From an uncultured delta proteobacterium (GTDB lineage: Bacteria; Desulfobacterota; Desulfobacteria; Desulfobacterales; JAFDCJ01): DNA of 64,000 nt. Below, piece by piece: positions 134 through 50,266 of the stretch (positions are counted from its first letter, which is position 1; every line of letters starts with the position of its first letter). The position numbers were made by a program, and so were the translations under genes. The stretch spans positions 64,001 through 128,000 of the forward strand of contig CAVYNY010000021.1 of NCBI GenBank assembly GCA_963769935.1. The letters run 5' to 3'. The notes below the pieces were generated by a model. The model worked only from the letters and a program-made list of their open reading frames with translations. It ran no database searches and was not told where the DNA came from.

Positions 134-1600
134 ATGAACTCAACCTCCGATATCGACCTTGCAAAATTTGAACAATGCCGCCTGCTGGTGGTAGGCGATC
201 TGATGATCGATGAATATGTATGGGGCAGCGTGGATCGAATCTCTCCGGAAGCCCCGGTACAGGTGGTAGCGGTTGCGTCGGAGGAATACACCCTGGGGGG
301 ATCGGGCAATGTGGCCAACAATCTGGTAACCCTGGGTGCCAACGTCGCTGTGCTCGGTGTCATCGGCCCCGGCAAAGACGGAAAATTGCTGCTGAATAAA
401 TTACAGGATCTCGGCGTGGATACTCGGGGTGTTGTTCAGGAATCCGGCCGGCCGACAACCAAAAAGACACGGATCATTGCCGATCATCAGCAGGTGCTGC
501 GCATCGATCGCGAGACAAAAAAGAAAATATCCGCGGATACATTCAACGCCCTTATCGAACTGGCAAAGAAAATCGTCCCTACGGTGGATGTGATCCTGAT
601 TTCAGATTACGGTAAAGGCTTGGTCACACGCGATCTGATCGCCCATCTGGTGACACTGGCCGGTACTCACGGCAAAATTTCGATAGCCGATCCCAAGGGC
701 TTGGATTTTAAGAAGTATGCAGGTGTCTCGGTGCTGACCCCCAACAAAAGAGAAGCCTCGCTGGCGGCCGGGGTGGAGATCGTGAATGAAAAAAGTCTCG
801 CCGCGGCCGGTGCCGGATTGCTTCAAAAATCCGGCGCCGACAAGCTGTTGATCACCTGCGGTAAGGACGGAATGGTATTTTTCGAACCGGGCTGCAAGCC
901 GTATAAAATCAGCACCCATGCGCGGGAAGTCTATGATGTATCCGGGGCCGGCGATACCGTGATCGCCGTGCTGGGTCTCGGACTGGCCGCCGGCCTGACC
1001 TTTAAAAAGGCGATCGGACTGGCCAACACCGCCGCCGGCATAGTGGTCGGTAAAGTGGGAACGGCAACAGTCACGCCCAAAGAGCTGGCCCTGGCTCTCA
1101 AACAGGCCGCCGAGGACACCGCTGTCAAGTACAAGACGCTGGATGAGCTGGCAGATATTTGCAAAAAGCTGCACATCGATCGCAAACGAATTGTTCTGAC
1201 CAACGGCTGTTTCGACCTGTTACACGTGGGCCATATCAAGCTTTTTTCGGCATCCAAGCAGCTCGGCGACCTGCTGATCGTTGCTATCGACGACGACGAC
1301 TCCGTCAGACGCCTGAAGGGCGCTGAGCGGCCCGTCATCAGTTCCACGGAGCGGGTGGGCCTCCTCAGCGCCCTGAACAGTGTGGATTATGTGGTGGTTT
1401 TTGCAACCGGCGAATTGGAAAAAGTCATTGAATCCGTTCGGCCCGATGTGCTGACCAAAGGCAGCAACTATGAGTCGGAAGAAGTTCAGGGTCGCCGGAT
1501 CGTTGAAAAGTTAGGCGGCCGGGTGGAACTGATTCCCATCACCGAAAACATCTCCTCCAGTCAGATAATTAACAATATTAAACAAAAGCTAAAAAGATAG
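134..1600 (+). CDS. hldE: Bifunctional heptose-7-phosphate kinase / heptose-1-phosphate adenylyltransferase
   Basis: N-terminal ribokinase-family motifs (VVGDLMIDEY, RISPEAPV, DVSGAGDT); C-terminal cytidylyltransferase-like domain (TNGCFDLLHVGH). Confidence 0.95.
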   Translation: MNSTSDIDLAKFEQCRLLVVGDLMIDEYVWGSVDRISPEAPVQVVAVASEEYTLGGSGNVANNLVTLGANVAVLGVIGPGKDGKLLLNKLQDLGVDTRGVVQESGRPTTKKTRIIADHQQVLRIDRETKKKISADTFNALIELAKKIVPTVDVILISDYGKGLVTRDLIAHLVTLAGTHGKISIADPKGLDFKKYAGVSVLTPNKREASLAAGVEIVNEKSLAAAGAGLLQKSGADKLLITCGKDGMVFFEPGCKPYKISTHAREVYDVSGAGDTVIAVLGLGLAAGLTFKKAIGLANTAAGIVVGKVGTATVTPKELALALKQAAEDTAVKYKTLDELADICKKLHIDRKRIVLTNGCFDLLHVGHIKLFSASKQLGDLLIVAIDDDDSVRRLKGAERPVISSTERVGLLSALNSVDYVVVFATGELEKVIESVRPDVLTKGSNYESEEVQGRRIVEKLGGRVELIPITENISSSQIINNIKQKLKR

Positions 1601-1611
1601 AACCCTTCCAA

Positions 1612-1974
1612 ATGAAATGTTCGGGTGTAAATTTGGACAGCGCAAATAAAGACGGATTAAGCGTTCGAAGAAGTCCTCAAGGAATTGTATTTAAGGTCCT
1701 CGTCCAGCCGAAAGCATCAAAAAACATGATCATCGGACTCTATGGCGATGCCCTGAAAATCAAGCTGACCGCTCCACCGGTAGACAACGCCGCCAACATG
1801 ATGTGCGTAAAATTTCTGGCCAAGGCTTTAAACGTCGCCAAATCCTCGCTCGATATCATCGCCGGTCACACCAGCCGCAATAAGCAGGTGTTATTGAAAG
1901 CGGGCCAGGGCAGCATCACCGCCGAAGAGTATAATCGTCTTGAGCAGCTCATCGAAAAAATAGCCCGCCCTTAA
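1612..1974 (+). CDS. yggU: DUF167/UPF0235 (YggU) family protein
   Basis: VLVQPKASKN, LKIKLTAPPVDNAAN and GHTSRNK motifs typical of the family. Confidence 0.85.
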   Translation: MKCSGVNLDSANKDGLSVRRSPQGIVFKVLVQPKASKNMIIGLYGDALKIKLTAPPVDNAANMMCVKFLAKALNVAKSSLDIIAGHTSRNKQVLLKAGQGSITAEEYNRLEQLIEKIARP

Positions 1975-2237
1975 ATTAATCACCCCATCCTGAAAAATTT
2001 GCGTATATAGGCGCGGCGGTTGACTCGACCCCTGTGATATGGAAAGCCGCAGCTTGGGATCTGGGGAAAAGTATGTTCCTGCATGCTGTTAAGCAGGCTA
2101 AAGCGGATCAGTTCACAATTGAAGGCACCGCATGGATTAATTAATCCGCCGGACCTTCGATCGAACGACCTTCTTCATGTTTCAAAAAACAATTTGCAAC
2201 CCGTAAAACAATATTTTTAAGGGCGGAGTAATTAAAG

Positions 2238-2266
2238 TTGACAGAAACCCCTTGACTAATTACTAT
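2238..2266 (+). promoter_or_regulatory. sigma70 promoter of tRNA-Met
   Basis: TTGACA-N17-TACTAT ending 33 bp before the tRNA. Confidence 0.75.
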
Positions 2267-2299
2267 TGATCCATTAAAGATGATCTTAAAAAAAAATGA

Positions 2300-2376
<77 letters not shown>

Positions 2377-2382
2377 ATAATT

Positions 2383-2420
2383 AAAAAAGGGTTTAGAAAA
2401 TTTTCTAGACCTTTTTTTTT
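2383..2420 (+). terminator. Intrinsic terminator after tRNA
   Basis: GGTTTAGAAA/TTTCTAGACC hairpin with A-tract before and T9 tract after. Confidence 0.75.
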
Positions 2421-2703
2421 AAATTTTGGGCCGATTCCGGACCTATTGATAGACCCAACACGATGACTTGGATTTCGGTCATATTCGTCAAAAATCTAGT
2501 ATTTTTTCCTCTTTCCTTTTCACGTCTCCTGCTTATTATATATGTATTTCCAATTCTTCTTCAACAAAGGAGAAATCACCTTGGATCTGATCAGACGCAC
2601 CTTCGGCAACTGGACGTCGGCTGCTATCCTCGCCGCAAGCGTTTTCGCGGGTGGAAGAGATGCCGCCGAACATTCCCGCAGGCAGGTTCAATGAGGCGGA
2701 AGC

Positions 2704-3006
2704 ATGAGCAAAAAATTAATATCAACGATATTCATGGCGGCTTTTATCGGCCTGTTTGTTATGCGGCCCGATTTATCGGCTCTGGATTCAGCACAATCTC
2801 TTGAGTGCGACGGCGGCACAGTTGTAGTTGGAGACACGGAAGACAGCGTCCGGGATAAATGCGGCGACCCTCAGAAAGTGACCCGGGAAGATGCAGCCTC
2901 TCCCGTTGTCTGGTATTACAATTTCGGTCCCACTGAGTTTGTTTATTATGTGACCTTTACGGACGGAGTTGTGATACTCATCCAAGTGGGAGGTTATGGC
3001 GACTAA
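2704..3006 (+). CDS. DUF2845-family secreted protein
   Basis: Signal peptide; C-DGG-V-VGD...KCGDP...WYYNFGP pattern. Confidence 0.8.
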   Translation: MSKKLISTIFMAAFIGLFVMRPDLSALDSAQSLECDGGTVVVGDTEDSVRDKCGDPQKVTREDAASPVVWYYNFGPTEFVYYVTFTDGVVILIQVGGYGD

Positions 3007-3161
3007 GGGCTCACTCAAAAATAACTCCACATTTTATACGCCGCTGCATCCCACCTGGCGCGTTGCGAAAGCTCGGAATATCCAGATATTCCTGCGTTTT
3101 CGCGCCTTGCCAGCCGGGCGCCGCAACGCCTAAAATTGTGAACTAATTTTTTGCTGAACCC
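3007..3161 (+). mobile_element. 155-bp palindromic MITE-like element, copy 1
   Basis: Imperfect terminal IRs (GGGCTCA.../...TGAACCC), TAA direct repeats on both sides, near-identical inverted copy at 33233-33388. Confidence 0.8.
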
Positions 3162-3297
3162 TAAGGAGCACGGCCGGGATACGGCCGCGCCCGCTCAGGC
3201 GCCATCGGGCGGCGCCGAATCGAGGATGCGACCTTAAATTCCTTTAAAATTCTCAGAACGATGCAGGAGGCTGCATCGAGGCCACAAGGAGTTTATT

Positions 3298-3582
3298 ATG
3301 AAAAAAAGAAATGCTTTTTTCTTAATTCCGGCAGTAATTTTGATTGTTTTTTTGCATCTTGATGCTGCTGTTGCTGCGGAAGAGGCATCTTCCATCATGT
3401 GCGACAACGGGGTCGTAAACATCGGGGACATGGATGTTACGGTTCAGGACACCTGCGGCGAACCCAACAGCAAGGGCATGAACGAGTGGGTGTACAATTT
3501 TGGCCCGGATCAACCCGTTTACACCCTGATATTTAAGGACGGCCAATTGGTAAAAATCCTGGAAAACGAATGGGGCAGTTAG
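3298..3582 (+). CDS. DUF2845-family secreted protein (paralog)
   Basis: Signal peptide; CDNGVVNIGD...TCGEP...WVYNFGP; AAGGAG RBS. Confidence 0.8.
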   Translation: MKKRNAFFLIPAVILIVFLHLDAAVAAEEASSIMCDNGVVNIGDMDVTVQDTCGEPNSKGMNEWVYNFGPDQPVYTLIFKDGQLVKILENEWGS

Positions 3583-3658
3583 ACGAGCAGGTCGCACATC
3601 TCAGCCGCGCTGCGTAGGTGCTTAAAAGTAAAGTTTTTGCATTTTCCGTAAGAAATAT

Positions 3659-12184: not shown

Positions 12185-13078
12185 CTAGTCATCTTGGACG
12201 ACCTCCAGAAAAACTTTGGCTTTGTCGATTTCGCATAATACCGTCTCGCGCAGATTCGACAACATCGCCCAATCGACGCCGACTTTGCCGCTAAGATCGG
12301 TGGCCGCCGCATGATCGGCAGGCTGACTTCCGGCATTGCCGATATGGAACACGTTGGCCCATTGATTGGCCAATGAAACAATCGACACAAAGCCGCGGTT
12401 TTTCTCAGAGCTCTCATCCGGATGGTGATGGTGGGAAAGCGAGTCAATCAGCGACCGGCCCAGTCGCCATTTCCTGGCAATCATCCGTCCCACGGCACAA
12501 TGATCGAGTCCCAGATGCCTGATTTCGTTCAGGTACAGTTCATTTTCCTGGCGGCGGGCGCAATCCCATACCCGGTAGTATTCTGTCGGAAATTGGGATT
12601 GCAAGGGAAGTTTGCCCAGGTCGTGCAACAGTCCGGCAATAAAAAATTCTTCGCGCGCTGACGAAGGCACTTCCTTTAGAGCAGCCAGTGATTTAGCGAC
12701 CACCCCGACCCCCAGCGAGTGGGTCCAGAATTCATCGGCCGAAAATGATCGACCGGGGCGCTGGCCCTTGAAATTATCCAGAATGGTAAAGCTAAGCGCG
12801 AGGTTTTTGACATTATTAATTCCCAGCAGAATAATCGCATGGGTAAGAGAAGATACCGGGCGGCCCAGTGAATAATAGGCCGAATTGATGAGTTTCAAGA
12901 CCCGGCCGGTTAGAACCGGGTCCAGCGAGATGACCTTTTTGAGATCATAGGCGGAGGCCTTCGGATCGTTGCAGGTCTCCAGGACTTTAATAACGGTGGT
13001 CGACAGACTGGGCATTCTGGCAATGTAGGCCTCAATTTTCTTTAAAAAGCGCTCCCGGTTGGGATGGAAATCATTCAT
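12185..13078 (-). CDS. HDOD domain protein
   Basis: MPSLS, DPVLT..VLKLINSAYY, FWTHS, AGLLHDLGKL, DH, HHH. Confidence 0.9.
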   Translation of the reverse strand: MNDFHPNRERFLKKIEAYIARMPSLSTTVIKVLETCNDPKASAYDLKKVISLDPVLTGRVLKLINSAYYSLGRPVSSLTHAIILLGINNVKNLALSFTILDNFKGQRPGRSFSADEFWTHSLGVGVVAKSLAALKEVPSSAREEFFIAGLLHDLGKLPLQSQFPTEYYRVWDCARRQENELYLNEIRHLGLDHCAVGRMIARKWRLGRSLIDSLSHHHHPDESSEKNRGFVSIVSLANQWANVFHIGNAGSQPADHAAATDLSGKVGVDWAMLSNLRETVLCEIDKAKVFLEVVQDD

Positions 13079-13126
13079 TGCACGACACGAGTCAAAACAC
13101 ATGTGAAGTTATTTTTGAGTAGGTCC

Positions 13127-21399: not shown

Positions 21400-22248
21400 T
21401 TATTTGGTAACCAAAACATCGGACAACTCTTCCACCCACTGCAGGGTCTGACTGGCCACCTTCTCCAGATGATGGGCCGTCAGCCCCAAACGTTTGACCG
21501 CTTCCCCTGAAGGTTTGTATTGCAGTCCGTCCCGGCCGACACCGACCCCGATCATCAGACACAACACATCGGCGATATGGACGATGTCCAGCATCGTATC
21601 TGCCTGAGCGGCGGATTCCGGATCATGGTGCCAGCGCACGGCGTTGACAAGCTCCGGCGGCAGTGACCACTTTCGGAGTATCTTGGCGCCGATATCGGCA
21701 TGATTGACTCCCAGGACCATATTTTCGGCCATTTCAAAAGAGACTTCCTGGGATAAGATATTTTCAATTTTCTTAAAATCATCCTGGACAAAATCACCCA
21801 GAACCAGTTTGCCGACATCGTGCAGCAGGGCCGCCGTAAATATCTCTTCGGCTGCTTCGATATTCAGTTCTTTTACCAGTCCTTCGGCCGCCACCGTTAC
21901 TGCAAGGGAGTGTCGCCACAGTTCCCCCGGGGACAAATCATAACCGGGCACCGGTCTATCCATCAGGGCACTGACACAGGAAGCAATCACCATTTGAATC
22001 AGACGCTTCAATCCCAATAGCAACACCGCCTGGCGCACCGAGCCGATCTTCGAGGGAATGCCGAAATAGGCCGAGTTGGCCAGCCGCAACAGGTTGGCTG
22101 TCAGGCCCGCATCCTGCCGCAAAATAAGCTCAATTTGAGTTACGTTAATATCCGAATCATTGATCAGGGCCAGCAGTTTCACCGCGGCTCCCGGCATGCC
22201 CGGAAATGAACTTAACTTGGATGCGATATTTTTGAGTTCTTGCGACAT
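21400..22248 (-). CDS. HDOD domain protein
   Basis: FPGMP, LLRLANSAYFG, LWRHS, AALLHDVGK, VRWHH. Confidence 0.92.
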   Translation of the reverse strand: MSQELKNIASKLSSFPGMPGAAVKLLALINDSDINVTQIELILRQDAGLTANLLRLANSAYFGIPSKIGSVRQAVLLLGLKRLIQMVIASCVSALMDRPVPGYDLSPGELWRHSLAVTVAAEGLVKELNIEAAEEIFTAALLHDVGKLVLGDFVQDDFKKIENILSQEVSFEMAENMVLGVNHADIGAKILRKWSLPPELVNAVRWHHDPESAAQADTMLDIVHIADVLCLMIGVGVGRDGLQYKPSGEAVKRLGLTAHHLEKVASQTLQWVEELSDVLVTK

Positions 22249-22282
22249 TCGATTCCCCTTCGCCTAATCCCTGGCCACCCTG

Positions 22283-23134
22283 CTAATTAAAGGTCAAAGC
22301 GCCTGATAATTCGTCTACCCATTGGGACACCCGCACTTTGATGTCTCCAAATTGAGCGATGTCCAGCCCCAGCCTCTCAATTACCGCCGGGGACAGATCG
22401 GCGGAAAAAGCTTCCGGCTCACTGTCGTTGCCGCCGGTCTGGCACAGCACATCGGCCAGATAAACAATATCGGTCGAGGGGCAGGACTTTTCAATAAAAT
22501 CAGGATCGTGATGCCAGCGTACGGCATCGATGACATCCCGCGGGAAAGACCATTGGGTTAAAATCTGGGCCCCGACTTCGGCATGGTCGGTGCCAAGCAC
22601 CATATTCTCGGCCACGACATACGGCACGCCGGAGTTGGCGATCTTTTCAATGGCCTCCTGTTCTTCTTTTACGAAATGGCCGAGGATCAGCTTGCCGATA
22701 TCATGCAGCAGCGCCGGGGTGAAAATATCTTCGGCCTCAATATTCTTCTTATCCTTGACCAACGCTTCCGAAGCAATCGACACGGCGATCGAATGCCGCC
22801 ACAGATCTCCCGGCGGCATATTATAGCCGGGAACCGGTTTGTCCATAACCGCATTGACACACGATGCAATGACCAGCTGGATCAATTTTTTCAGGCCGAG
22901 CAGCAGAACGGCTTGCCGGGTCGAGGCGACCTTGGAGGGAATTCCGAAATAGGCCGAATTGGCCAATCGCAGCACATTGCCCGTTAATCCCGGATCATGG
23001 CGCAGAACATCTTCAATTTCATCCACCGTGGTTTCCGGGTCTTCCAGCATCCTGAGCATCTTGGCGCCGGTGGCCGGCATGCTGGGAAACGATTTTATTC
23101 TGGATAGTATTTCATTCAAATTCGAATGGTTCAT
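22283..23134 (-). CDS. HDOD domain protein (tandem paralog)
   Basis: FPSMP, DPGLT..VLRLANSAYFG, LWRHS, ALLHDIGK, VRWHH. Confidence 0.92.
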   Translation of the reverse strand: MNHSNLNEILSRIKSFPSMPATGAKMLRMLEDPETTVDEIEDVLRHDPGLTGNVLRLANSAYFGIPSKVASTRQAVLLLGLKKLIQLVIASCVNAVMDKPVPGYNMPPGDLWRHSIAVSIASEALVKDKKNIEAEDIFTPALLHDIGKLILGHFVKEEQEAIEKIANSGVPYVVAENMVLGTDHAEVGAQILTQWSFPRDVIDAVRWHHDPDFIEKSCPSTDIVYLADVLCQTGGNDSEPEAFSADLSPAVIERLGLDIAQFGDIKVRVSQWVDELSGALTFN

Positions 23135-44462: not shown

Positions 44463-44930
44463 TTACTGAACCACGAATTCTTTAAAATAGATGTTGGTTA
44501 TCTTACCTGAGGTGAGTAAGCTATTCAGCTTTTCCAGGATTTCATCCCTGAGTCCGGTTTTACCTTCTACGGAGCTGATGTCTTCAAAGCGTTTGGAAGG
44601 CAGAATCATCAAAATGCTGTCCCGGATCTGGGGCATTCTTTTATTGATCTCGTCTTGCAGTTCGGATTTCCCCAGTTCCAAGTCCATGGTCACCCGCAGG
44701 TAGCGATTGCCGCCTTTATCCGCCAGATTCACGATAAATGTTTCCAGTGAACAGATCGGGCCCAGCAGCTGTTCCGGGTTGTTTTCCGGGGCGGGGTCTG
44801 TGCCTGCATTGGCGGCACTCTGCACACTCAATTCGGAGAGTTTATTCCACATCATATACAGGCCGCCGCCCATGCCAAGCATAAACACCATCAGAACACC
44901 AATGAGCAAAAAGAGAACTTTATTTGACAT
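44463..44930 (-). CDS. fliL: Basal-body associated protein FliL
   Basis: N-terminal TM; FIVNLAD, PQIRD, IYFKEFVVQ. Confidence 0.93.
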   Translation of the reverse strand: MSNKVLFLLIGVLMVFMLGMGGGLYMMWNKLSELSVQSAANAGTDPAPENNPEQLLGPICSLETFIVNLADKGGNRYLRVTMDLELGKSELQDEINKRMPQIRDSILMILPSKRFEDISSVEGKTGLRDEILEKLNSLLTSGKITNIYFKEFVVQ

Positions 44931-44931
44931 T

Positions 44932-45672
44932 TTACTTCTCACCTTCCGTTACAAGAACGATTTCCACCCGCCGGTTTCTGGCACGATTGGCCGCTGAATC
45001 GTTGGGAGCCAACGGTCTTGATTCACCGTAACCAACTGCGGAAAGCCTTTGAGGATTGATTTTACCGATATCGACTAAATATTTTACGACACTGACGGCC
45101 CTGGCTGTGGACAGATCCCAGTTCGATGGGAAGCGGTGGGTATGAATGGGCACGTTATCCGTATGGCCTTCAACCCGCACCAGGCAGGAAATTTTTTGAA
45201 CCATGGCCGCGATTTTATCCAGGAAGGCCAAACCGCTTGAATTGATTTCGGCCTTCCCGAAATCGAAAAGCAACGCATCTTCAAATGAAATGCGCGCCTC
45301 CTGATTCGCATAGGTAACGTTAATACCGGGATCGGCGGCGAGCTCGCCCAGTGCATCGTCAATGGCGTCCATCGTGTCTTCTCCCTCGCCGGGTGTCGTC
45401 TCGCCTTGTCCCTGGGTCCGTGGGCCGTCAACGGAGACGAGTGGCTGGGAATCGTTTACCGCAATGGACACTTTTGAGCCGGCCGCCAAAACCCCCAGCC
45501 CGCTTTGCAGGGCATTCTGAAATTCCTTCATCATATTTTTGTCGGTTGACCCCATTGTAAAAAGCAGCACAAAAAAAACCATCAGCAAGGTGACCAGATC
45601 GTTGAAGGTGGTCAGCCATCCGGATCGGTTGCCGGAATCTTCCACAGGCCGCACCAAGTTCTTAAGGCTCAT
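44932..45672 (-). CDS. motB: Stator B subunit (MotB/PomB), canonical
   Basis: WLTTFNDLVTLLMVFFVLL TM with the conserved Asp; OmpA-like domain EGHTDN, SNWDLSTARA, RNRRVEI. Confidence 0.93.
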   Translation of the reverse strand: MSLKNLVRPVEDSGNRSGWLTTFNDLVTLLMVFFVLLFTMGSTDKNMMKEFQNALQSGLGVLAAGSKVSIAVNDSQPLVSVDGPRTQGQGETTPGEGEDTMDAIDDALGELAADPGINVTYANQEARISFEDALLFDFGKAEINSSGLAFLDKIAAMVQKISCLVRVEGHTDNVPIHTHRFPSNWDLSTARAVSVVKYLVDIGKINPQRLSAVGYGESRPLAPNDSAANRARNRRVEIVLVTEGEK

Positions 45673-46427
45673 GGGCTGCCTCCGTCGGAACGCCTTTTGG
45701 ATCGGTATTCAGAAAAATGATCTCGACTCTGCGGTTTTGGGCCCGGTTTTCAATGCTGTCGTTGGGGGCTACCGGATGATACTCGGCGAATCCTTCGGCG
45801 GAAAGCCGCCGACTTGAAATACCGCAGGTTTCGATGAAATACCGCAACACCGTCACTGCCCGGGCGGTGGACAGTTCCCAGTTCGATGGGTAGCGTGCAG
45901 TTTTGATCGGCACATCGTCCGTGTGTCCCTCGACCCGCACCTCGTACGGGCTGCCGGCAATGATGGCACCGACCTTTTTCAGCAGCGGGATGGCCTTCGG
46001 TGAAATGTCGGCCATTCCGATATCGAACAGGGCGTGATCCGACAAACGCATTACCAACCCTCTGGGGAGAAAAGGCGACCGCGATGTCTTGCTCGAGACC
46101 ACGATGTTCGGCCAGGCTTTTTAATTTTTCATAGATGTGTGCCAGCTGGCTCTTGCGATTCACGATATCGGCGGACGTAGGCACGATAATGCTGCCGTCG
46201 TCAATTTTCATGCCTCCAGGCAGAATGCTGACGGAATTCACGAATGACTTCACAAATCGCATGACTTTTGCTCCCTCGATGCTCGAAAAGGAACTGAGCA
46301 TAATGAAGAAGCAAAGCAAAATCATAGCGAAGCCGGAATATATAACTTCCCAGCCGCCGGCCGAGCCTTCATCACCGTCTGCGCTGTTTTTTTTCCTGAA
46401 ATTCTTCATGGCTTCATCGCGGATCAC
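45662..46427 (-). pseudogene. motB: Second MotB-like stator subunit, Asp-less, with one apparent frameshift (possibly an assembly error)
   Basis: TM WEVIYSGFAMILLCFF and the OmpA domain (EGHTDD, SNWELSTARA) lie in different frames; removing one base from the G4 run at 46064-46067 gives a single 255-codon ORF. Confidence 0.8.
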
Positions 46428-46463
46428 CCGCTGCTCTAAAGGCCCTTGGTTGCGATTCCATTC

Positions 46464-47243
46464 CTAGGCGTTGGCCGGCTCCAGATCGACTGTCGGGCGT
46501 GCTTTAGGGGCAATAAACGCCTTCAGCTTTTGTTCGACTACCCGGTGATTGTCACCGGATTGAATTGACAGAACGCCTTGGAGCACCATTTGCTTAACCA
46601 GTATTTCCTGTTTGCTGCGGGTTTTTAATTTTCCCGCAATTGGGATAAACACTAGATTGGCCAGGATTGTGCCGTAAAAGGTGGTCAAGAGCGCCACCGC
46701 CATCGGGGCACCGATCTGACTGGGATCTGCCATCTGCATCAGCATCTGGACCAGACCGATGATAGTTCCCAACATGCCGATCGCCGGGGCGAACCCCCCC
46801 ATCGTGGTGAAGATTTCCGACCCCAGACGGTGCCGCTCTTCCAGGTAAATGATTTCCGTAACCATGACATCTTCGATGGCACTGGATTCCATGCCGTCTA
46901 TTGCCATCTGAATTCCCTGAACCAGGAAGGGGTCTTCAATATTTTCCAGCTGCGATTCGAAGGAGAGAATCCCCTCCTGGCGCGCCTTTTTGGCAAATCC
47001 GGTAATCAGAGGAATAAGCTCGCTGACGGAGTGGGACTTGTGCATGAATGCATGTTTGGCAACCTTGAAAACACTCAATACATCTGCCAACGGATACGCC
47101 AGCAAAGTGGCGCCCATGGTACCGCCGAATACAATCATCAACGAGGGTGTATTGATAAACCAGGTCCCATCTCCGCCCATCATGATGGAGACAATCACCA
47201 AACCAAATGAAATTATGATCCCGACCAGGGTTGCTATATCCAA
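46464..47243 (-). CDS. motA: Stator A subunit (MotA/PomA type)
   Basis: DIATLVG, AR.EGIL..E, APAIGMLGTIIGLVQML, AVALLTTFYG; TTG start after AAGGAG. Confidence 0.95.
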   Translation of the reverse strand: MDIATLVGIIISFGLVIVSIMMGGDGTWFINTPSLMIVFGGTMGATLLAYPLADVLSVFKVAKHAFMHKSHSVSELIPLITGFAKKARQEGILSFESQLENIEDPFLVQGIQMAIDGMESSAIEDVMVTEIIYLEERHRLGSEIFTTMGGFAPAIGMLGTIIGLVQMLMQMADPSQIGAPMAVALLTTFYGTILANLVFIPIAGKLKTRSKQEILVKQMVLQGVLSIQSGDNHRVVEQKLKAFIAPKARPTVDLEPANA

Positions 47244-47295
47244 CCGCAAACTCCTTTGGATGCCAAATTAATGGAAATTATTGTTATGTTATGGT

Positions 47296-47565: not shown

Positions 47566-47799
47566 TCAGCGGGCACCCGGCTGCAGGCTCTGGTCGGTAT
47601 CGGCGTCGTCCGCCAAATGGCAATTGATAGCGCGCTGGTAGTCCGCGATGCGCTGGGATATCTCCTCTACCGGCTCTTTGACCATGATTTTATCATGGTT
47701 GGTAAATGTAATGACCGTGTCCGGCGTTGCCTGCAGGGATTGTATTTTTTCGACATTGATTACCATCACGGAATCGTTTAAACGGGTTACCTTAATCAT
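47566..47799 (-). CDS. flbD: FlbD/SwrD family flagellar protein
   Basis: MIKVTRLN, IN...I......TPDTVITF, VKEP.EEI; between flgE and motA. Confidence 0.88.
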   Translation of the reverse strand: MIKVTRLNDSVMVINVEKIQSLQATPDTVITFTNHDKIMVKEPVEEISQRIADYQRAINCHLADDADTDQSLQPGAR

Positions 47800-47891
47800 G
47801 TCTATCCACCTTCTTTCTTGAGAAAACATGCTGGCCATAGATGAAAGGTTTCAGTGTTCAGGTTTCAGTGTTCAGGGTCACGATCGATGGT

Positions 47892-48099
47892 CCTGACACC
47901 TGAAACCTCATATGAAACTTCATTAAATTCGATGCGATTTTTATGAAGTGTCTCACCGCTGAGAGCGCAGAGAGCGCTGAGATTAATTAACATTTTCTTC
48001 CTCGGCGGTCTCTGCGGGCTCTGCGGTGAACTATTCTGTTTCTTTTTTGATCAGACCGGCCGTTATTTTGGCCGGCGGCCGAGCTGACACCTGAAACCT
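47892..48099 (+). repeat. Composite dispersed repeat, copy A
   Basis: CTGACACCT-bounded element with internal CACCGC...CTCTGCGGTG hairpin; 52-nt block (48048-48099) identical to 53118-53169. Confidence 0.8.
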
Positions 48100-48125
48100 C
48101 AAGATAAGACCTAAAACCCCTTCCT

Positions 48126-48175: not shown

Positions 48176-49407
48176 TTATCGTTTAATATTGATCAGCTCA
48201 TTCAGGATTTCATCACTGGTGGTGATCACCCGGGAATTGGCCTGAAACGCTCGCTGGGTGGTGATCATCTTGACGAACTCCTGCGCCAGGTCGATGTTGG
48301 ACATTTCAATGGCACCGGGGGAGACCGAACCCAGCCGACCATTCCCGGCAACTCCCGGCATCGGCTGCCCGGACTCCAGAGATTCGGCATAGAGGTTCTT
48401 TCCCAGTTTGCTCAACCCATCGTAGCTGGGAAAATCGGCCAGCGCTATCTGGTAGGTCGGGGTCAGTTGGCCGTTGGAATACGCAGCGGTGACCACACCG
48501 GCTTCATCTACCGATATGCCCCGCAGCACGCCGGAAGCATATCCGTCCTGGTACTGGAAGGTCGTGCTGGACGGTGATGAATATCCGGTGACATCTCCAA
48601 GGCTTGTGCCGCCGGCATCGAACAGATCCCAGGTGAGTGTCTGTGGCGTGGCCGCCCCGTTGGCCATGGTAATGGATAAGGTTTGATCGGCCGCCGGTGC
48701 TGTTAAATTGCCGGCGCTCGTCAAAGGTAAGCGCTGCCGTTGATGCGCCACCAATTGTAGCCGGACCGTTGGGCGAAGGAACGGAGGCCGCCACCGACCA
48801 GCTTTGCGCGGCGGCCTGTTTGGTAAAGGTCAGGGTCAAGGGAATGGCATTGCCCAGGGAGTCAAAAATCGACTGGGAAGTCGAATAGGTGCCATTGGTT
48901 GCGGTCTGTGAATCCAAGTTGAGGTCGAATGTAAACTCTGTTGTGGCGGACGGCGGAGAGATCCGTTCTCCGGGAATGCTGACGGTCGGTAAGATTTCCC
49001 AGATTGCCGCTGCTGTCGATCTCGTAGCCCTGAACATTCATTCCGTCCGGATTGACCATATCGCCGGCATCATTCAGATAAAACTGCCCGGCCCGGGTAT
49101 AGAAGTTGGAGCCGCTGTCATCCTGCACGATAAAAAACCCTTGCCGTTGATGGCCAGATCGGTGGGGTTGCTTGTAGTTTTCCAGCGACCCCTGGGTCCA
49201 CAGCGGACTGGTACCCCAAAATTCGACGCCCCGGCCAATACCGCTGCTGAGCGAACCGCCCAGGGATTGACTTAATACATTGGCAAACATGGACCGGTTG
49301 GCCTTAAATGCGGTGGTGTTGACATTGGCGATATTGTCGCCGATGACCGTCATGGCGGTCGAGTTGGCATTGAGGCCTGAAATTCCTGCAAACAATGATC
49401 CTATCAT
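48176..49407 (-). pseudogene. flgE: Flagellar hook protein FlgE with four apparent frameshifts (probably assembly errors)
   Basis: MIGSLFAGISGL...GDNIANVNT N-terminus and EMSNIDLAQEF..MI.TQRAFQANSR C-terminus; indels near 49180, 49135, 48985 and 48719; net correction gives 410 codons. Confidence 0.9.
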
Positions 49408-49409
49408 TT

Positions 49410-50160
49410 TTATTTTCCTCCATTGATTAAAGGGGTTGATAGACTGTGGATGCCGGGTCGATCCGAATCGGATGCGGAGAGGTCCGCCAGCCGCCGCATT
49501 TTCAAGGGCAACCTCAACCACATCTCCCAGGGCAATTTTTTGGCTGCCGGAGATCAAAAAGGATGCATTATTCTCAAATGTCACTTTATCCACGGTGCCG
49601 GTGTAAAAAGTTGTGGCATCAATGTCCTTGCCATTGATATCCGCAGCCATAATTTCAAAGGTATAATTGCCGTCGGGCGCCCGATTGCCGTTTTTATCGG
49701 TGCCGTCCCACGACAGGGAATTCTGACCGGCGGTCAAATTCGGGCTTTCAATGGCCTTAACAAATTCGCCGCTACTGTCATAAACATTGGCCACAACCAG
49801 GGCGGCGTCATCCGCCAGTTTGAAATTACATTCGACCGGATCGTCGGCGGTTAGCTTAATAAAATTGCCGTTGGCGGTGATTGTTTTGCCGATCAGTGAG
49901 ACGGCCTGGGAATTGTTGATGGATGCTTGAAAATTTTTCAATTCCAGCAAGTTGTCATTGACATTGCTCAACTGCTCCAGCGAACTGAATTGGGCCAGCT
50001 GAGAAGTAAACTCAGTACTGTCGGTCGGATTCAGCGGATCCTGGTTCTGCAGCTGGGTAATCAGAAGATTTAAAAAGTCATCCTTATTCAATACTTTTGA
50101 CGGCAGAGCGGTAAGCTGGGTACCGCCGGAAGCGCCTGCATTTAATGCCTCGGTTATCAT
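49410..50160 (-). CDS. flgD: Hook capping protein FlgD (apparent frameshift near the 3' end)
   Basis: DDFLNLLITQLQNQDPLNP, FTSQLAQFSSLEQ, WDGTD; as written it reads into flgE, but a 1-nt correction ends it at NGGK-TAA overlapping the flgE RBS. Confidence 0.9.
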
Positions 50161-50266
50161 ACTGGGTTTCACCTCACATGGTTAAAGTTAACTAATCCGC
50201 CCTGAAAGATAGTACATTCAGAGTTGTAAATTGTTCTTTGAAAACTGAAGCAAGAGAAGCCACCGC

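Follow-up and report, generated by a model that had tools for sequence, protein, structure and literature searches.

The flagellar stators closest to the one described here are Na+-driven complexes of five A and two B subunits (5:2). In PomAB, as far as the accessible text of PMC10374538 goes, ion site 1 is made up of PomB T21 and D24 and ion site 2 is built from PomA T158/T185/T186 alone. The transmembrane (TM) aspartate of the B subunit is described in the parts of the literature available to us as universally conserved. Tandem B genes are known from Aquifex aeolicus, where according to the accessible part of PMC4525482 the TM/N-terminal regions of motB1 and motB2 are 97% identical and each chimeric B functions alone with MotA. 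A review (PMC9389320, accessible sections) describes a turnstile scheme in which the sites alternate between the angles allowed when charged and those allowed when loaded; in its words 10-fold symmetry is 'almost certain to be a universal feature', and it states that five ions per revolution would demand an entirely new model. The current models of MotAB, ExbBD and TolQR rest on two alternating aspartates and 36° steps. Engineered MotB mutants in which this residue is neutralised (D22N/D32N) are non-motile.

In this study we analysed a window of 64,000 nucleotides, the whole stretch of DNA under consideration, which contains a large flagellar and chemotaxis cluster with the minus-strand order flgE–flbD–motA–motB′–motB–fliL–fliM. 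The preliminary description had reported one motA followed by two overlapping motB genes, and we could confirm this arrangement from the sequence. We use B′ for the B subunit without the aspartate and B for its partner; residues of B′ are numbered as in P0001, an intact copy of the protein. The features are:

47566..47799, minus strand: flbD, upstream context
46464..47249, minus strand: motA/pomA-like A subunit, likely start TTG at 47243
45662..46409, minus strand: motB′, B subunit without Asp, with TM, plug and OmpA-like peptidoglycan-binding domain
46284..46352, minus strand: TM helix of B′, residues 26-48 of P0001, with hydrophobic residues in place of the two Thr around Gly32
46332..46334, minus strand: GGC, Gly32 of B′, at the site of the ion-binding Asp; same bases in the read contigs
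46230..46274, minus strand: predicted plug helix of B′, residues 52-66, with K54/F58/F62 conserved
46061..46062, no strand: extra assembly base behind the apparent frameshift, an artefact absent in 4/4 runs
45779..45781, minus strand: Tyr216 of B′, aromatic half of a split Pro-aromatic contact in the predicted dimer interface
44932..45672, minus strand: motB, partner with Asp, W-x-x-T-F-N-D-x-x-T
45598..45603, minus strand: Asn24-Asp25 of B, Asp25 being the sole TM carboxylate of the B/B′ pair
45052..45054, minus strand: Pro207 of B, proline half of the split interface contact
44463..44931, minus strand: fliL, directly 3′ of motB, main flagellar operon context

The motB′ gene starts with ATG at 46409 (the database call is GTG at 46427) and stops at 45662, its 3′ end overlapping the start of motB by 11 bases. 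Elsewhere in the window, three HDOD-domain genes lie within or next to the gene cluster (12185-13102, 21400-23134). The intergenic stretch 47846-48101 holds an 18-nt direct repeat (47893, 48084), a 14-nt tandem repeat (47846) and imperfect inverted copies; contig depth over these repeats is 20- to 100-fold higher, with many loose ends, and they probably represent a REP-like or small mobile element that the group carries in many copies.

As assembled, motB′ carries an apparent frameshift, and decay of the gene had therefore been named as an alternative in the preliminary description. The extra base at 46061/46062 is missing from the contigs of four out of four sequencing runs, taken from three studies, and a 1300-base contig running across both the Gly codon and the break shows one gap and no other difference. 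The protein collection contains an intact B′ of 254 amino acids (P0001), encoded on a 9,032-base contig and identical over the queried N-terminal part, as well as a protein 100% identical to B (P0270), likewise on a 9,032-base contig. The window is indel-prone, because read contigs show at least 10 further indel rows in flgE/flgD (48719-49484) where the assembly is wrong. In the region 48176-50172, flgD and flgE look fused or broken into several frames. The frameshift in motB′ is an assembly error, and we rejected B′ as a decaying or pseudogene copy on the basis of the read contigs without the extra base and the purifying selection reported below. Contigs from RNA runs also span parts of B′, although contigs cannot show transcription.

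Alignment to canonical MotBs placed the Gly (GGC) of WEVIYSGF in B′ in the Asp column, as had been proposed, with WLTTFNDL as the corresponding segment of B. Orthologs of the first motB do not retain the aspartate: Gly is found in all 119 close homologs that contain the TM (120 listed, one truncated), so its presence at this site is not due to chance. Across 60 B′ sequences the position is Gly in 43, Ser in 13 and Ala in 4. Counting from the Asp site, Thr occurs at D-3 in 2/60 and at D+3 in 1/60 B′, mostly replaced by hydrophobic residues, while single MotBs have Thr at these positions in 77% and 91%, respectively. Since the equivalents of both PomB T21 and D24 are lost, the whole ion-binding stripe is gone from B′. 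The D-1 position is T/S/C in 51/60. The Glu next to the Trp had been considered as a relocated carboxylate, and 115 of the 119 close homologs indeed have it; across the 60 B′, however, this W+1 residue is Glu in 25, Gln in 17 and another residue in 18, and no D/E was found between D-4 and D+14 in any of them. A relocated carboxylate is unlikely because the Glu is not conserved, and Glu27 was rejected in this role.

B′ keeps the domains of a B subunit. Pfam PF13677 (TM and plug) matches with 39.8 bits (cut-off 24) and the OmpA-like domain PF00691 with 66 bits, and an AlphaFold2 model (mean pLDDT 79) has a TM helix at 26-48, a plug helix at 52-66 and an OmpA-like fold. The GHTD Asp and the LSxxRA Arg have a role in peptidoglycan binding; as D170 and R189 they are present in 100% of 51 B′, in line with the earlier statement that the peptidoglycan-binding motifs are intact. 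The MotB/MotS cut-offs of NCBIfam are reached neither by B′ nor by B. From its sequence, B′ is classed as a MotB paralog that would not be a canonical conducting MotB, the conserved TM Asp being absent. The partner B has the TM Asp, the Thr at D-3, the plug and the OmpA-like domain of MotB/PomB proteins, and in partners of the Desulfobacterales type T22, F23, N24, D25 and T28 are invariant among 122 sequences.

In MotA, the threonines of Na+-type PomA that had been noted before were borne out by alignment: GTIIG (T162) and LLTT (T189/T190) align to the PomA segment with T158/T185/T186. Among 58 cassette MotAs, T162 and T190 are found in 100% and T189 in 98-100%. MotA also retains P155, M159 and R90/E98, the latter presumably equivalent to the rotor contacts R88/E96 of PomA. 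Its best matches are 8UCS/6YSF (E 1e-59) and PomA (3e-55). Judged from the MotA threonines alone, the stator is likely of the Na+ type. We also considered an acid in MotA that compensates for the lost Asp and rejected it, since none was found in TM3/TM4 of the 58 cassette MotAs and acids appear only at A181 (7%) and N33 (28%). In the tree the cassette MotAs group together, with SH 0.80 for all of them and 0.94 for those of the Desulfobacterales type. The Desulfobacterales-type MotAs have lineage-specific residues near the periplasmic TM ends (W30, Q172, M173, P182, Q220), which may be an adaptation to B′ or mere phylogeny.

We found an Asp-less B′ followed by an Asp-bearing B at 60 distinct loci besides the window, counting all fetched loci after de-duplication by TM-region sequence; most of them belong to Desulfobacterota. 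Three Asp-less hits had no partner and all three lie at contig ends. Reciprocal searches in 301 genomes of the class gave 35 genomes for the top-scoring B′ group, 35 for the partner group and 34 with both, counts that are not independent because the genomes are related. Both exceptions are cut by contig ends, and one has a B′-like C-terminal fragment. Named records with B′ are Desulfobacterales, Desulfobacteraceae, Desulfatitalea and 'Deltaproteobacteria'. More divergent cassette members are found in other parts of the phylum and also in Nitrospirota, where one cluster bears Manganitrophaceae/Nitrospirota names. A single-query survey of 251 genomes from the phylum to which a Thermodesulfovibrionales record belongs gave one cassette, which is no measure of frequency. 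In a 50%-identity library, the best 139 matches, once aligned, comprised 33 with a residue other than Asp, 93 with Asp and 13 with gaps.

At 52 of the 60 loci the short flanks contain at least one of flgE, flbD, fliL or fliM; a search for fliL alone was weak (10/58), and the count for any of the four was used. Of the 52 cassette genomes with a MotA match (E≤1e-25; 54 searched), 24 have no match other than the cassette MotA, and 13 of these 24 are at least 95% complete. Another MotA is present in the other 28 and in the window's genome, whose second, ordinary motAB (G000:C17, L267 5208-6709) is stand-alone with neighbours that do not look flagellar. Selection on the two B genes is alike. In 11 non-overlapping pairs the pooled dN/dS was 0.22 for B′, 0.23 for B, 0.07 for MotA and 0.11 for the TM of B′, and the medians over 31 close-locus pairs were 0.24, 0.23 and 0.11 for B′, B and MotA; these values come from simple NG86 with correction, with some pairs near saturation. 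Purifying selection acts on B′ as it does on B.

Several unusual B proteins were seen in the course of these searches. Long profile-search matches that we considered as B′–B fusions turned out to be other tandem-OmpA/coiled-coil proteins (9 read), and the fusion idea was dropped. P0123 and P0132 have an OmpA-like domain, a MotB-like TM with Asp and a second OmpA-like domain, an unusual architecture for MotB. P0172 and P0220 are MotB-like with an N-terminal extension that by eye resembles a DnaJ-type J domain. In a lone Clostridiales motB (L112 3989-4708), with no second motB seen, the Asp position is occupied by Val; the gene may be dead, or the sequence in error.

Pairing between B and B′ was examined by structure prediction. 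Given two copies each of the B and B′ periplasmic domains, ESMFold2 reached a score of 0.69 (0.69/0.66/0.70 in the individual runs), whereas the best of three controls stayed at 0.00. The best run has B–B′ interfaces for both copies, with contact agreement of at least 56% and partner pLDDT of at least 81. In the calibration, 116/157 solved pairs attained the ESMFold2 mark, as did 2/215 mismatched ones; these figures apply only roughly here as the job differs from the calibration, and the score is that of the 2+2 mix as a whole. B and B′ are thus predicted to pair via their periplasmic domains, although the score may reflect likeness to known structures because MotB/PomB/MotS periplasmic dimers have already been solved. 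At the interface columns B and B′ diverge more (JS 0.234) than at entropy-matched columns (0.166, p=0.018; p=0.019 with all 60 pairs); a stricter count of interface columns that are 'conserved but different' was not significant by Fisher test (p=0.08 and 0.16). One modelled contact is split between the two proteins: Pro207 in B together with an aromatic residue 216 in B′ is found in 47/51 pairs and the reciprocal in 2/51, and both halves occur within the same protein in 3/51 B, 14/51 B′ and 103/148 single MotBs. This contact was chosen after the model had been seen, and the counts come from related genomes and are not independent.

Similar differences are found in the membrane, where according to the accessible text of bioRxiv 2023.03.05.530362 the core of the MotB TM dimer consists of D-1, D+2, D+6, D+9 and D+13. 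At D+13 all 60 B have F/L/I (Phe in 48/60) and all 60 B′ have C/T/S/N/V/A; of the single MotBs, 128/148 have an aromatic residue there. The D-1 residue is Asn in 51/60 B and T/S/A/C in B′. The differences between B and B′ fit the pattern expected from complementary degeneration. An Asn at coiled-coil core or TM helix positions can favour self-pairing, and Asn24 of B, at such a core position, could favour B–B pairing, against the heterodimer.

With the TM columns removed, B′ of the Desulfobacterales type group with the Asp-bearing first copies of two tandems, L119 and L120 (SH-aLRT 91), and the partners group with the second copies (SH-aLRT 99), deeper links being unresolved. L119 (G451, 1046-2521) and L120 (G559, 1489-3033) are motA–motB–motB arrangements with Asp in both B, sister to the Asp-less cassette, and it is possible that they are evolutionary intermediates. 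In L119 the Pro/aromatic split is already there while Asp is kept in both copies, a pattern that fits heterodimerisation before Asp loss without proving it. A third Asp/Asp tandem, L260 (G053, 2012-3648), is a separate later motB duplication with identical Asp-bearing TM segments, as in Aquifex. A metagenome contig (L204, 1697-3041) has the reverse order: after motA comes a canonical motB and only then another motB, in which Asn takes the Asp position, a natural D→N. A tree including the TM gave the Asp-less B′ a single origin (FastTree SH 0.96, three extra tips); we do not claim one origin for all Asp-less B′, because the tree without the TM is unresolved (4 changes, with starred branches forcing only 1).

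How might such a stator work? The preliminary description had suggested a heterodimeric B–B′ stator with a single Asp, and the conserved cassette, the purifying selection, the predicted heterodimer and the split interface all speak indirectly for it. We consider it probable, if with considerable reserve, that the trio forms a MotA5–B–B′ stator of the Na+ type in which there is only one ion site; such a stator is predicted to use 5 ions per turn, against 10 in the textbook case. Na+ in the MotA Thr cavity (T162/T189/T190) would be handed only to Asp25/Thr22 of B, while the Gly/Ser/Ala face of B′, small and hydrophobic, would neither bind an ion nor lock on MotA. As such B′ might be the passive half of the axle, contributing plug and wall anchor. 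Since a residue that is small and neutral and has no Thr beside it would place no constraint on rotation, the single Asp could cycle alone with 72° per ion. Each ion would thus turn MotA by 72° instead of 36°, and a full turn would take about 5 ions; assuming tight coupling, this would mean about half the ion cost at half the maximum torque per unit. A wider claim, that a widespread Desulfobacterota lineage (with a Nitrospirota member) has an obligate heterodimeric single-site 5:2 motor with 72° per ion, which arose by duplication, a split of the interface and then Asp loss, with L119/L120 as intermediates, is put forward tentatively, and here our doubts slightly prevail.

It is also conceivable that B′ is a non-conducting regulator, in which case A5B2 would do the work and A5B′2 or an inactive A5BB′ would act as a brake, a rotor place-holder or a MotA sink and thereby adjust torque or the use of ions. 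The combination in B′ of no TM carboxylate (0/60) with a retained plug and invariant peptidoglycan-binding residues suits such a role, all catalytic residues are present in B alone, the canonical models require two alternating Asp, and Asn24 could promote B–B pairing. However, most single MotBs keep both halves of the interface contact within one protein whereas B no longer has the aromatic one, the 2+2 mix was modelled as heterodimers, and B′ is constrained as strongly as B. In addition, motB′ is the middle gene of the trio and shares bases with motB; the genes are therefore probably expressed together constitutively, B′ being in this scenario a dominant inhibitor. We regard this explanation as unlikely. 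Still less probable, in our view, is an asymmetric heterodimer with two ion paths and about 10 ions per turn, in which the B′ side passes Na+ without Asp by way of the MotA-only Thr cavity, Tyr30, Ser/Thr31 or Glu/Gln27 of B′, or Asn24 of B in trans. PomA site 2 consists of PomA oxygens only, as far as the accessible source shows, and the cassette MotA retains the equivalents; moreover 42/60 B′ carry E or Q at W+1, D-1 is T/S/C in 51/60 and the partner has Asn24 in 51/60. Yet Glu itself is restricted to 25/60, the Thr at D-3 and D+3 are replaced by hydrophobic residues in most B′, D-1 faces the B–B interface and not MotA, and MotA TM3/TM4 offer no compensating acid. That B′ is a redundant copy or one in decay, or else the partner of a non-flagellar system, we hold to be very improbable: the frameshift in the assembly and the scores of B′ (and B) below all NCBIfam MotB/MotS cut-offs would point that way, but the read contigs lack the frameshift, dN/dS is 0.22 and 60 loci are intact, with flagellar neighbours at 52/60 loci and no second MotA match in 24/52 genomes.

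A stator that naturally has a single Asp would be a direct test of the need for two sites, of step size, of ion count and of power stroke versus ratchet. The 5:2 periodicity of two equivalent sites and 36° steps would hold if B–B is the working dimer and would not hold if B–B′ is. If the single-site heterodimer is indeed the working form, it would amount to a naturally occurring gear with half the usual stoichiometry, at odds with the 10-fold symmetry presumed to be universal among 5:2 motors; one might speculate that it serves as a low-cost gear in energy-limited anaerobes. Even if B′ were a brake, it would still be an undescribed stator regulator, masked by the standard 'MotB' annotation. 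In the main texts of the accessible literature that was searched, there was no description of an Asp-less tandem MotB. The accessible text of a MotAB phylogeny (PMC12505986) makes no mention of aspartate, D32, heterodimer or 'Desulf', while its supplements could bear on novelty, and the accessible parts of PMC11658791, PMC9093738, bioRxiv 2025.10.28.684902 and bioRxiv 2025.11.06.686970 contain no such trio. The motA–motB′–motB trio is a real, conserved flagellar stator variant that has apparently not been described before.

In conclusion, this variant is like the Na+-driven 5:2 stators (Vibrio PomA5PomB2 8BRD/8BRI; Clostridium MotAB 6YSF/8UCS; Bacillus MotPS) in keeping the Thr cavity and the M155 equivalent, and B′, whose best match is Clostridium MotAB 6YSF (3e-45), shares TM, plug and OmpA-like domain with them. 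Unlike these stators, the cassette has two B genes per A, its B′ is without the Asp and both Thr, and its axle is predicted to be heterodimeric. With Aquifex aeolicus motA/motB1/motB2 it shares one motA followed by two motB in an operon, as described in the accessible part of PMC4525482, whereas its TMs, in contrast to the Aquifex pair, are strongly diverged and one is without Asp. In the Myxococcus AglR5–AglQ–AglS complex, too, a pentamer of the MotA/TolQ family goes with a B axle that is predicted to be heterodimeric, but AglQ and AglS differ from B/B′ in that both are described with the conserved Asp, in a TolQR-like gliding motor (accessible parts of PMC11761067 and PMC9389320). The MotB D22N structure (6YKR) has a neutral residue at the ion site, as B′ does. 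Those D22N/D32N proteins are homodimeric laboratory mutants, whereas B′ is natural and conserved, with G/S/A at the site, and stands beside an Asp-bearing partner wherever the contig permits a check.
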